In this document: positions 3,242 to 48,901 of the stretch, in pieces
Layout of the letters: each line of letters begins with the position of its first letter
Position numbering within the stretch: the first letter of the stretch is position 1
DNA from: a virus
Length of the DNA: 64,000 nt
Direction: 5' to 3' (one strand)
Virus record (IMG/VR): IMGVR_UViG_3300035689_000004
Coordinates: 28,547-92,546 of that record
Program-made: the position numbers and the translations under genes
The notes under the pieces: generated by a model
Databases searched by the model: none
What the model saw: only the letters and a program-made list of their open reading frames with translations
What the model was told of the DNA's origin: nothing

Positions 3242-3306
3242 CCTAGCTGTTGCATATTTGCTCTAAGCGATGCTAGTGTAAATAAACATCTAGTACGGGG
3301 GAACCA

Positions 3307-12373: not shown

Positions 12374-12419
12374 AGCAAGCCTCCTGAAGTTTGCCGGTGA
12401 TTATAGCAGATAAGCAATG

Positions 12420-16751: not shown

Positions 16752-16851
16752 CTCCTAAACGATATTGCATATTTACTCTACCATGGCATATTTGCAATAT
16801 GCAATAACCCAAGGGGAGAACCGCTAAAATTAGCCTAGAGACTGGCTACCC

Positions 16852-31192: not shown

Positions 31193-31210
31193 TATTGCAA
31201 ATATGCAATA
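31193..31210. promoter_or_regulatory. Palindromic operator TATTGCA-N4-TGCAATA (family B, best copy)
   Basis: Perfect arms; related copies at 3250, 16764-16805, 42178, 47586-47622. Confidence 0.65.
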
Positions 31211-31522: not shown

Positions 31523-31633
31523 CAATTCAACTTTAGGGGTTACTTATCCATAGGCACCTTTGGCATTTCTCCGTAGTAAAAACGCTATAGACGTGCTAAA
31601 AATACACTTGTGTTTTATTTTTGCTACACGCCC

Positions 31634-32746
31634 ATGCCTGGCATTCGCACCCTATACCCCCGTGGCAGTAAAGAAGACGGTTTAGGCGTATTCCTAGCCA
31701 AGATGGGCAGACACAAGCTTCTCACCCCTGCCCAAGAGATAGAGCTAGGGCGACAGGTGCAGGAGGGGCTATGGGCCGCGGCAACGGTCCTGGACGATCG
31801 CGATCGCCGTCAGCCACTACAGGAAGATTTCGAGCGCCAGCACCGTAGCGAGCACGGTGAATTACCAACTCAGGTGGAAATTGACGCTTACTTTGACGAG
31901 GCACGGCAGCGGTTGATTGATACCTACCGCCAGGGCCACCCGGAGGCGACAGAGGCGGAGATGCGCCGACACTTTGAACGGGTAGCCCGGCAGGGCAAGA
32001 AAGCTTGCGACCAGATGGTAATCCGCAACCTGCGCCTAGTAGTGAGTGTGGCCCACAAATATTCCAAGCACGGGCTAGAGCTAGGCGACTTGATCCAGGA
32101 GGGCGTTGTTGGCCTAGTGCGAGGGGTAGAAAAATTTGACCCGGCGAAGGGTTATAAATTTTCGACCTATGCCTACTGGTGGATTCGTCAGGCGATCACC
32201 CGGGCCATCAGCAACAAAGCCAAGTCGATCCGCCTACCGATCCATGTTGTGGACGTACTCAACAAGGTGCGCCGCTATGGCCATGTTTTTCGGGCTCAGC
32301 ACGGACGCTACCCAAGCGATCGCGAAGTGGCCGAGCATTTCTCCTCCCGCAATGGCGTTTCTGCCGATGAATGGCTACGACGCTTGCAACGGTTCAAGGC
32401 GATGAATATCGCGCCGACCAGCCTGGACCACGTGGTAGATAACGGCGATCGCGCTAAAAGCACAATCCACGACCTTGTAGGGGGTATTGATGATAGCTCT
32501 ATCAGTTTGTTTGGAGATCAGGTTATCGAGGAATTGGGCGCCGCTGTGGTGGGCTTGCCGACCAGGGAGCGGCAGGTGGTGGAACTAAAGTACGGGCTAC
32601 TCAGCGGTACGCCTAAATCCCTCAGCGAAGTGGCTAGGGAGATGGATGCACCCCTGGCGACGGTACGAACGATCCACGTCAGGGCATTACGGCGATTGTC
32701 TAGGGAGCGGCGGGGCTTGCGATCGCTGCTCGAAGGACTAGATTGA
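31634..32746 (+). CDS. Phage-encoded RpoD-family (group 1/2-like) sigma-70 factor
   Basis: [11 protein letters not shown] (1.2), [44 protein letters not shown] (region 2), [12 protein letters not shown] (region 4); start uncertain (31610 or 31634). Confidence 0.92.
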
Positions 32747-42057: not shown

Positions 42058-42236
42058 AAAATAGCTATAACCTAAGCGCTGTCTGTCTTTTGCCCCATCT
42101 AGCCAATATTTCCCCATGAAAACCTTTACCCTTGCAGGAGATCGCTACGTCGCGTGAAAAAGCTCTAGGCGTCTAGCGCTTATTTGCAACAAGCAACCCC
42201 AGGTTATACTTAGGCTGTCCCCCTTCTTTAAGCACC

Positions 42237-46284: not shown

Positions 46285-47315
46285 TGTGGTCCCCCCTTGC
46301 CCCCGATGATTTCAGCCAGTTTGAACCGACCGATATTATCGCGTTCCTAGATTGGTTTGAACGACAGTACGAGGACGCGATCGCCCTCGGCATTGTCGAT
46401 GGCTATGTGGAGGGGGTGACAGAGCCCTACCTGGTGAATATCTCCACCGGCCAACCGATACCGGAGTGGGTAGCGACCGTCCTCAAGGTACGAGAAGTGG
46501 CCCAATGGGCGTACCAACAACAGGAACCGATTGCCGCCCGCCTGCGCCGCAACCTAGCCGCCATCATCCCAGATGATCAGGTGGCAGGCTACGCCGCCCG
46601 GTTTAGGGTAACCCCGCAGGACATTGCCAACGTCCCCCCGGCGGTGAGGGAGAGCTTTAACCAGGGCGCTCGCTTTTCACTGGACTGGGTGAAACGCTTG
46701 TCCGATGACGCCCGGGGCATGATGCGGGACGTGCTGGCGGTGGAGTCGCTAAAGAACCGTAACCCCGCCGGGGCCGTACCCATCCTTGAAAACCTATTGC
46801 GCCGCGATCTAATCGCCCAGGAGCTAGGGGCGGACCCTAGCGCTGTCACCCCGGCCATGGTGCAGGAATGGTTGATTAATACCGAGTCACGGTTGTTAAA
46901 TGCGATCGCGTCCCGGGCGCAAACCATTTCCCGCACCGAATCCATGCGAATGATGAACTTGGGCATCCTGGCCACGCTGGAGGCAAGCGGGCAACGACTA
47001 GCCTATGTGATGCCCCACGCGGGTAGTTGTGAGCATTGCCGCCGGTTGATTGACGGTCGCGTTTTTACAATAGAGGTGCTAAAGCGCAACCTATTTGCTA
47101 ATTTTGGCGTTCGCCCCGATGCCTGGGTCGCTAGTCTGCCCCAGCATCCTAACTGTCGCCATTCGGCAGGCAAGATACCGGTTAAGTTTAGGCGCAAGCT
47201 TGCCAACATGGAGATCCCCCCGGAGGGGCTGGTGCTGCAATACTACGGCTTGCCGGGCGGTAAAACGTCCATGGATGCCCTGGAACTGCCAGAAGTGGAA
47301 TGGCTAGAGCCCTAG
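46284..47315 (+). CDS. Head morphogenesis protein (Mu gpF / SPP1 gp7-like)
   Basis: RAQTISRTE...N.G, CEHC, PQHPNCRH. Confidence 0.82.
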   Translation: MWSPLAPDDFSQFEPTDIIAFLDWFERQYEDAIALGIVDGYVEGVTEPYLVNISTGQPIPEWVATVLKVREVAQWAYQQQEPIAARLRRNLAAIIPDDQVAGYAARFRVTPQDIANVPPAVRESFNQGARFSLDWVKRLSDDARGMMRDVLAVESLKNRNPAGAVPILENLLRRDLIAQELGADPSAVTPAMVQEWLINTESRLLNAIASRAQTISRTESMRMMNLGILATLEASGQRLAYVMPHAGSCEHCRRLIDGRVFTIEVLKRNLFANFGVRPDAWVASLPQHPNCRHSAGKIPVKFRRKLANMEIPPEGLVLQYYGLPGGKTSMDALELPEVEWLEP

Positions 47316-47554
47316 CTAAGCCCTCTAATCGTCAACCTGTCTTGATCGTAGTCTTCCAGCACTAGAACGCACTCCGCGCCATTGCAGATAAAGTTGAGCG
47401 TGATCTGGGTATCTACGTGGTTCTTTAGCCACCGAGCTGCCACCGCCCCACAGGCGCCATCCACACCCTTGAAACGCAAGCGATCGCCGTCGCTGGTGAT
47501 GTAGAGTGCATTCTCTCCGGGAACATACCGAAAATCCTTGAGCGTCATGTGCAT
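47312..47554 (-). CDS. Hypothetical protein
   Basis: GAAGGGGA RBS; divergent from 47688. Confidence 0.55.
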   Translation of the reverse strand: MHMTLKDFRYVPGENALYITSDGDRLRFKGVDGACGAVAARWLKNHVDTQITLNFICNGAECVLVLEDYDQDRLTIRGLS

Positions 47555-47585
47555 GGCTATCCCCTTCTCCGTGAAACTATCGAAT

Positions 47586-47628
47586 TATTGCATATTTGCT
47601 TGACCATTGCTTATTTGCAATATACTAT
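47586..47628 (+). promoter_or_regulatory. Promoter covered by two family-B operators
   Basis: TTGACC 47600-05, 17 bp, TACTAT; TATTGCATATTTGCTT and ATTGCTTATTTGCAATA flank the -35. Confidence 0.65.
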
Positions 47629-47687
47629 TTGAATTGTGAGCCACGGGGTTCACAACCACTCAAAAGACCACGGAGACGGAGATTGTT

Positions 47688-48071
47688 ATGAGAAGTTTCA
47701 TTATCGGCGCTAGCCTGACTGCTGCCTTGCTTCCCACTATGCCTATGGCAACCACAACCACAACCACAACCACAACCGCGATTGTTGTTGCCATGCGCGG
47801 CGACGGCTACTGCCCGGACGAAAAGTACAGCTCTGATCCAGATTGCGCCCGGGAGGGCGCCCAATGGCGGGGCAGTGGACGGGTAGATGACACTGACAGC
47901 CAAGCTAAGTCCGGACCTAGCCGCGACGACTACCCCCGGTGCCGCAACTGGGAAACAAGCGAACCACGCCCTGCTGGCTGCCGTCGGCGGGCTAACCTGA
48001 TGGCTAGCGCCGAAAGCGATAAGCGGAATCAGTGGCCCGATCGCACACCCCAGCCTGGCCACCTTGGCTAA
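47688..48071 (+). CDS. Secreted peptide precursor containing RGSGR (PatX-like candidate)
   Basis: Signal-peptide-like N-terminus, (CAACCA)n poly-Thr, RGSGR at 47868-47882; GGAG RBS, terminator about 48088-48118. Confidence 0.55.
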   Translation: MRSFIIGASLTAALLPTMPMATTTTTTTTTAIVVAMRGDGYCPDEKYSSDPDCAREGAQWRGSGRVDDTDSQAKSGPSRDDYPRCRNWETSEPRPAGCRRRANLMASAESDKRNQWPDRTPQPGHLG

Positions 48072-48133
48072 TTGACGCAACCCCCTAGGGCTGGCTTCGG
48101 CTGGCCCCCAATTTTTTTATTTAGGAGAGAACC

Positions 48134-48901
48134 ATGGCAGACAACGTTGATACAAATTTGGCGATCGCTCTCGCCCTTGAGGAGATCGCCGCATCCTTGA
48201 AGGCGATCGCGCTATCGACAGTTCCCAAGAGCACTCATCAGGCTTTAGGTTTTCTGGCAGATGACGCACGACCTACCTATATTTATTGCAATCTAACTGG
48301 CGGCGGCGATCGCTGGTATCGCTTGACAGAAGACAACCAAAGGGAAAACATGCCCTCTGCCTTTTTGGGACTGGTAAAAGACCTGCGCTTTGTCAGTAGA
48401 GAGCGAAGTGGCGAGGAAACCGCAAAGTTTGAGCTACACATGGAGGACAAGGACGGTAACGCTTACGTCTTTGAAGCTGGGGCAGAAACGTTCTTTGCTC
48501 GATCCGTTCTAACCGCCCTAAGCCTCTGCCCCGTGGCGGACTTGAGGCAGCCCATTCGACTGTTCAGCTTTGTATCTGATCTGAATAACAAGAAAAAAAC
48601 TCTCAATGTCAGCCTTACCAGCCAGTCTGGAAAGCTAAACGCTAGCTGGAAGAAGGACGACAACTGGCGGGCGATCGCTACCGCCGCCAAGTTCAACGTC
48701 TACAAAGCCCTGGGCAAAGAAGCGCCAGCACCGGAGCCCACCACCCATCCAGCGACACCGCCGCCGCCAACCCGTCCCCCGGCAGGCAATCCACCTGGCG
48801 GAGCCCGCGATCGCATTGCCCAGCGGGCCAGTGTTAGACCCGTCGCCGCCGGGGTGGATTCACGGGCGGCAACTGATTGGGATGAAGAGATACCGTTCTA
48901 G
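48134..48901 (+). CDS. Putative ssDNA-binding protein (SSB-like acidic tail)
   Basis: Pro-rich linker and C-terminal DWDEEIPF like bacterial SSB DFDDDIPF. Confidence 0.55.
   Translation: MADNVDTNLAIALALEEIAASLKAIALSTVPKSTHQALGFLADDARPTYIYCNLTGGGDRWYRLTEDNQRENMPSAFLGLVKDLRFVSRERSGEETAKFELHMEDKDGNAYVFEAGAETFFARSVLTALSLCPVADLRQPIRLFSFVSDLNNKKKTLNVSLTSQSGKLNASWKKDDNWRAIATAAKFNVYKALGKEAPAPEPTTHPATPPPPTRPPAGNPPGGARDRIAQRASVRPVAAGVDSRAATDWDEEIPF

Follow-up and report, generated by a model that had tools for sequence, protein, structure and literature searches.

HetR and its RG[S/T]GR inhibitors form the textbook reaction-diffusion patterning system of bacteria. The role of HetR in non-heterocystous filaments has yet to be established. 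Several types of precursor carry the pentapeptide. PatS (13-17 aa) and HetN, a reductase-like protein, are cytoplasmic precursors that lack an export signal, have a glutamate residue before the motif, and are restricted to heterocyst formers. Their RGSGR core is the HetR-inhibiting unit (PMC7761841). PatX is represented by Asl2332 of Nostoc/Anabaena PCC 7120, by small ORFs linked to hetR in filamentous cyanobacteria, and by the profile NF047413. It must be exported by Sec, and the periplasmic PatP cuts both sides of its HRGTGR sequence; the hexapeptide has a Kd of 88 nM for HetR, whose DNA binding it abolishes (PMC12756182). The patX-hetR pair is also present in the non-heterocystous Leptolyngbya BL0902, in which the deletion of hetR alters the expression of 993 genes (PMC11298460). 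Among phage signals, the closest described case is the arbitrium peptide AimP of Bacillus phages, which acts on an adjacent phage receptor, AimR, and whose mature peptide is C-terminal and phage-specific.

It was found that a tailed phage carries a gene for a 127-aa orphan protein with an internal RGSGR sequence. No description of a phage-encoded RGSGR protein was found in the literature. The protein is like PatX in that it is a small precursor with an N-terminal Sec-type signal peptide and a low-complexity spacer, and in that an aromatic or His residue stands before RG[S/T]GR; in the PatX proteins of the probable host order, the motif is likewise internal and is then followed by [VIRF][ED]. 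It is unlike PatX in that its gene is a phage gene that does not lie upstream of hetR, in its unrelated four-Cys scaffold with a long region after the motif, in the Trp residue usual at position -1 in the phage family, and in that the motif is optional within this family. With PatS and HetN it shares the RGSGR core, whereas the export signal, the size of the precursor, the residue before the motif, and the probably non-heterocystous host all set it apart from them. Like AimP, it is a phage-encoded secreted pro-peptide that would be processed outside and act after re-import; unlike AimP, it comes without a receptor gene, and what the candidate peptide copies is a signal of the host. I estimate at about 0.5 the probability that the gene is a phage-borne, non-homologous functional analogue of PatX, whose product, once exported, would yield a HetR inhibitor through cleavage in the periplasm.

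The phage and its probable host

The window (the whole stretch of 64,000 nucleotides analysed here) is part of a 92.5-kb IMG/VR record estimated to be 87% complete. The phage genes include those for a portal protein, a terminase, a tail sheath protein, a sigma factor, and a beta clamp. A further gene encodes a large serine recombinase (445 aa) of the integrase type. Thus, the virus is a tailed phage and probably a temperate one. No close cultured phage was found, the best portal match having 25% identity. The HIP1 octamer GCGATCGC occurs 121 times in the window, while 1.4 occurrences are expected, and a cyanobacterial host is therefore indicated. When 185,579 species genomes were scanned by pattern, a relative of the portal protein was detected only in one Leptolyngbyaceae MAG (61% identity), and a search of 90 genomes of the order of this MAG added a second one, in genome G412 (58%). 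Relatives of the portal and capsid proteins were found in these two genomes of the order only, with 58-62% amino acid identity and with 68-69% nucleotide identity in the capsid region. No hetR gene was found in the 92.5-kb record. The preliminary description of this DNA had named hetR in the host as a point to check. In the order to which the host probably belongs, 85 of the 90 genomes have hetR, including both genomes that have the phage relatives. The host is probably a filamentous, non-heterocystous Leptolyngbya-type cyanobacterium, as judged from the phage relatives binned in MAGs.

In a 130-kb contig of the second genome (G412:C100, with loci L014, L043, and L047-L049), the portal, protease, scaffold, and capsid genes are in synteny with those of the window. 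The contig has neither the cassette described below nor the adjacent replication genes. The ends of this contig carry mostly phage-like genes and one Rieske oxygenase gene, and the contig may be an integrated prophage or a binned phage contig. A 37-nt match (89%) in genome G478 was considered as a CRISPR spacer and was rejected since there is no repeat array.

A cassette with its own promoter and terminator

The gene lies between a head-morphogenesis gene and the replication module. With a promoter and a terminator of its own, it forms a self-contained cassette at 47586-48118, so that the monocistronic organization proposed in the preliminary description stands. The sigma-70-type promoter (TTGACC-17-TACTAT, 47600-47628, plus strand) is 93-95% conserved in the sister phages L003 and L005. 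Two operator-like 13-nt direct repeats, ATTGC[A/T]TATTTGC (47587-47599 and 47606-47618, plus strand), flank and overlap the -35 hexamer, and an inverted pair TATTGCATAT/ATTTGCAATA is located around the -35 hexamer and the spacer of the promoter; this arrangement agrees with the operator-covered gene that had been described. The predicted transcript has at its 5' end a leader hairpin of 9 bp, TTGTGAGCC-N4-GGTTCACAA (47634-47655, plus strand), which is conserved in L003 and L005. The hairpin was not exceptional in comparison with shuffled sequences, and an Rfam search of 47300-48300 gave no match. A ribosome-binding site GGAGA (47678-47682, plus strand), read from the sequence, precedes by 5 nt the ATG start codon of the 127-aa coding sequence (47688-48071, plus strand). 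In the source gene call (P0001, 114 aa), the start codon is a TTG located 13 codons downstream of this ATG at 47688; the ATG is the better start because all homologues keep the upstream Met residue and the hydrophobic stretch. An intrinsic terminator (48088-48118, plus strand) consists of a hairpin with an 8-bp GC-rich stem (48088-48107) and a T-run.

The divergent neighbour encodes an 80-aa orphan protein (47312-47554, minus strand). The regions of the ribosome-binding site and start of the two genes (47552-47573 and 47669-47690) compose a 22-nt inverted repeat with 77% complementarity. The downstream neighbour (48134-48901) encodes a 255-aa orphan protein ending in DWDEEIPF, which is like the acidic tip of bacterial SSB. 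This gene precedes a PNK-phosphatase-like gene and dnaN, and its N-terminal half is unusually variable, with 53-73% nucleotide identity between near-identical phages.

In the window, the 13-nt element is more frequent than expected, with 13 matches (up to two mismatches) against 2.9. The two-repeat arrangement recurs together with TTTGCAATAT upstream of the portal gene (around 16760-16800), and it is also present as a perfect palindrome, TATTGCAAATATGCAATA, at 31193-31210. Further sites of the element are located at 3249-3261, 12406-12418, and 42175-42187. Since the arrangement recurs at other phage promoters, the cassette would belong to a promoter or operator class used throughout the phage. 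The element probably defines such a phage-wide class, perhaps one tied to the phage sigma factor encoded at 31610-32746, and a phage regulator or the phage sigma factor is likely to switch the cassette jointly with further operons of the phage.

This kind of regulation bears on another suggestion of the preliminary description, namely that the processed peptides serve the lysis-lysogeny communication of the phage itself. The protein would then be the precursor of an arbitrium-like phage-phage peptide that is secreted, processed, and re-imported, and its variable interior would define "pherotypes". A probably temperate phage, a secreted precursor that is predicted to be disordered, the diversity among sister phages, which resembles pherotype diversity, and a promoter covered by an element that recurs at phage promoters including that of the portal operon would be compatible with such a scheme. 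However, no receptor candidate, such as a TPR-type peptide receptor gene, adjoins the gene: the neighbours are the 80-aa orphan and the protein with the SSB-like tail, and neither has receptor-like matches in Pfam or PHROGs. Moreover, the most conserved stretches of the protein (the motif and the C-terminal QPGHLG) are common to unrelated phage groups, contrary to what private signals would show, and cyanobacteria are not known to have an arbitrium-like system. The suggestion found no partner gene at this locus, and I regard it as very improbable.

The motif within a mosaic protein family

The 127-aa product looks exported by Sec. The signal peptide comprises approximately residues 1-21 (47688-47750, plus strand), with an n-region containing R2 and a hydrophobic 12-mer whose mean Kyte-Doolittle value is 2.2 in a manual test. 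The cleavage site is uncertain (after the Ala of PMA-T or of VVA-M), while sites of the A-x-A type exist in all homologues. The signal-peptide-like start noticed in the preliminary description is supported by these features and by the basic character of the n-region. The signal peptide is followed by a poly-Thr spacer of nine residues (T22-T30, 47751-47777, plus strand) encoded by an (ACAACC)n repeat, at which slippage may change the length of the spacer. The length and the composition of the spacer differ among the homologues. The protein has four Cys residues, the first pair in GDGYCP...DPDC and the second pair after the motif. The HetR-inhibitor motif of the PatX/PatS/HetN type, W60-RGSGR65 (47865-47882, plus strand; RGSGR, residues 61-65, at 47868-47882), is embedded in the segment A-R-E-G-A-Q-W-RGSGR-VDD. 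It is followed by 62 residues, which include a conserved C-terminal tail, ESDKRNQWP...QPGHLG.

An AlphaFold2 model of the protein has a mean pLDDT of 52 and a pTM of 0.17, and the pLDDT of residues 56-76 is below 50. The RGSGR segment (residues 56-76) is therefore predicted to be disordered, which is compatible with protease access. A complex prediction of residues 50-84 with the HetR dimer of the Leptolyngbyaceae MAG, run without controls, gave a score of 0.00 and is evidence neither way. Pfam, PHROGs, and NCBIfam assigned no family to the protein, and the ESM Atlas gave nothing above 0.8 and no useful structural neighbour.

Sequence searches yielded 30 homologues, and a profile search of 1.84 billion representatives brought the family to a total of 39 proteins, all from metagenomic or viral sources. 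No member was found in deposited phages (tblastn and blastn), in 185,579 GTDB species genomes (pattern scan), or in 401 cyanobacterial genomes, and the 90 genomes of the Leptolyngbyaceae order gave chance-level matches only. The gene is present at seven IMG/VR loci, which represent two phage groups. Group A (L003 and L005/L006) is of the same phage type as the window. In this group, the neighbouring proteins are 90-98% identical to those of the window, but the 127-aa protein is only 42-49% identical. At the nucleotide level, the flanks are 85-98% and the promoter is 93-95% identical, versus 33-46% for the interior of the coding sequence; in the latter, the identity has a local peak of 68-76% over DPDCAREGAQWRGSGR and rises again at the C-terminus and the terminator. 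Group B (L002, L004, L007, and L008) is an unrelated phage type in which only one of the four loci has the motif. It shows no HIP1 enrichment, with no octamer in 20 kb (56-58% GC) against 38-42 in group A, and the two groups may differ in their hosts or in their history with the host. The helicase of group B has 63% identity to that of Synechococcus phage S-CBS3 and 45% to that of one genome of the Leptolyngbyaceae order. In group B, the gene adjoins a divergent gene for an XRE-type regulator. In L008 (13080-14950), short hairpins (CCCCACC-N4-GGTGGGG) with spacings of 37-75 nt form two arrays that flank a gene for a 227-aa protein; they could be packaging or terminase-binding repeats.

The family is composed of modules: two types of signal peptide, two types of N-terminal loop, three or four types of second loop, and several C-termini, found in nearly all combinations. 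Thus, the gene is an accessory cassette, which undergoes recombination within phage lineages as well as between them. Is the pentapeptide conserved in such a mosaic? The sequence [WY]RG[ST]GR is present in 18 of the 39 members, and a degenerate version in none. In the other 21 members, the motif is cleanly deleted (AQ-QLS/N-KS) while the scaffold is kept. The conservation expected from the preliminary description therefore divides into two parts: the R, G, G, and R residues are invariant wherever the motif exists, but slightly more than half of the family does not have it. Among 17 motif-bearing members, whose identity goes down to 35%, 16 columns are invariant, including R61, G62, G64, and R65, whereas the residues after the motif vary. 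One member has an overlapping duplicate, RGTGRGTGR. The distant members P0034 and P0037 have lost the second Cys pair and have kept YRGSGRID. All nine members with an MxxFI-type signal peptide have the motif, versus 6 of 24 with the other type, and among the loci with a known context the MxxFI type is confined to the HIP1-rich phages of group A.

It had been cautioned at the outset that a pentapeptide can occur by chance. In the window, RG[ST]GR occurs once in all, in approximately 44,750 residues of six-frame ORFs of at least 60 aa, and therefore a lone occurrence is unremarkable. To this extent the caution was justified, but the invariance in 18 homologues, down to 35% identity, goes beyond it. 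The pentapeptide might still be neutral, inherited as part of an orphan gene and without a role in signalling, given that composition alone would put one RG[ST]GR into roughly 1 in 10 phage proteomes and that this pentapeptide was singled out after the fact. Neutrality leaves unaccounted for, however, the four motif columns that are invariant at 35-75% identity within the most variable part of the gene, the lack of degenerate forms, and the local peak of nucleotide identity over the motif, and I consider it improbable. Judged from these alignments, the all-or-none invariance of the motif inside the most variable part of the gene exceeds chance, and the pentapeptide is best described as a selected, optional module on the family scaffold.

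Since 21 of the 39 members have the scaffold and not the motif, the inhibition of HetR is not the only or the original function of the family. The remaining scaffold (GDGxCP...DPDC, RDxFPxC, and ESDKRNQFP...QPGHLG) may be a conserved carrier or may have a second role in the periplasm. It is conceivable that this scaffold, looped by disulfides, is itself the active part. The protein would then be a periplasmic host-interaction factor, for example for superinfection exclusion or the masking of an envelope receptor, and the motif loop would serve in binding or in recognition by a protease, with no relation to HetR. The small size, the probable export, the four Cys residues, and the self-contained cassette fit this idea. 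So does the wider conservation of the scaffold motifs than of RG[ST]GR, which half of the family lacks; the hypervariability between near-identical phages and the mosaic of every module are as in a cell-surface arms race, and the site next to the divergent XRE-type regulator in group B is a common accessory-gene site of temperate phages. Yet the idea leaves the exact PatX pentapeptide unexplained, in which only S and T alternate, which is all-or-none, once duplicated, and has host-like flanks, and the searches gave no similarity to known exclusion proteins. I regard such a factor as unlikely, though still a serious competitor of the PatX-like function.

Comparison with the PatX proteins of the host order and possible meaning

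The hetR loci of the Leptolyngbyaceae order were surveyed for PatX. In 19 of 20 loci, there is an ORF of 60-121 aa just upstream of hetR. Its product has an internal [HY]RGSGR behind a signal peptide, and the tail after this motif comprises 7-20 residues and usually starts with [R/I/V/F/L]-E. Two hetR-linked genes, L030:2695-3057 and L031:2440-2739 (both on the minus strand), encode PatX polyproteins with eight and six tandem [Y/H]RGSGR[V/I][E/D] units, respectively, behind one signal peptide. No description of the YRGSGR form or of tandem PatX units was found in the literature, and a search of deposited phages gave no relative of the multi-copy host PatX. The phage unit, [WY]RG[ST]GR[VI][DG], is very close to the host units (YRGSGRID and WRGSGRVD versus YRGSGRIE and HRGSGRVD). 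The preliminary description had counted it as a weakness that the motif is in the middle of the protein and is preceded by W instead of E or H. Because at 19 of 20 hetR loci of the host order PatX carries an internal [HY]RGSGR, these objections to the position and the preceding residue are removed, except that W itself was seen in none of the host PatX proteins surveyed, which have H or Y at this position.

Is the phage protein then a member of the PatX family? In a BLASTP comparison, the window protein and the L031 PatX gave 32 bits with a pairwise E value of 2e-7. A shuffle test revealed that this score comes from the signal peptide and the Thr-rich spacer (p of about 0.03) and from the motif. 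When the motif was masked, the score fell to the shuffle level, and the motif-less members had no match. The shuffle test thus gives no support to homology with PatX beyond the motif. The PatX profile NF047413 had no match among 30 family members; this test is weak because the genuine hetR-linked PatX proteins of the Leptolyngbyaceae order score 11-17 bits against a cut-off of 30 or give no match at all. The phage protein is not filed as PatX because it lacks the position next to hetR, the short tail, and a match to the profile; it is better classified, from its sequence, as a protein that may work like PatX without being a member of that family.

If the gene is a functional analogue of PatX, the following course can be proposed. 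The 127-aa precursor would be exported by Sec, and its largely disordered mature part would display [W/Y]RG[S/T]GR between two small disulfide loops. A host periplasmic peptidase of the PatP type, which matures PatX, would cut out the RG[S/T]GR peptide. The released peptide would re-enter cells along the filament and block the DNA binding of HetR, and the infected and neighbouring cells would be held in the vegetative programme. The central proposal of the preliminary description, that the phage mimics a host signal so as to manipulate HetR, is strengthened by a protein that looks exported, by a motif that appears to be selected, and by the presence of hetR and PatX in the likely host clade; it is weakened by the 21 of 39 members that lack the motif, and a descent from PatX is not supported by the sequence comparison. 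Further points count against the PatX-like function. The 62 residues after the motif are far more than in any host PatX surveyed; the host is inferred from MAG-binned relatives, and the related contig of G412 does not have the cassette; and a motif-bearing gene also exists in a group B phage without HIP1 enrichment.

A virus with an exported carrier of the PatX peptide may tamper with the cell-to-cell signalling of its host. In a fuller and more tentative version, to which I lean somewhat less than to its rejection, the virus would secrete a counterfeit host morphogen: a PatP-cut peptide would spread along the filament and silence HetR in infected and neighbouring cells, and unrelated phages would pass the cassette among themselves and retain it only with hosts that have HetR. 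If this is true, HetR-driven differentiation or filament fragmentation that could limit viral spread would be prevented. A phage-encoded exported carrier of the inhibitor would mean that viruses exploit the intercellular channel of HetR, and this phage would be the first one to manipulate bacterial multicellular patterning via the mimic of a diffusible signal. The cassette would also provide an independent substrate for the specificity of PatP and a natural gain-of-function tool for the role of HetR in Leptolyngbya-type filaments.
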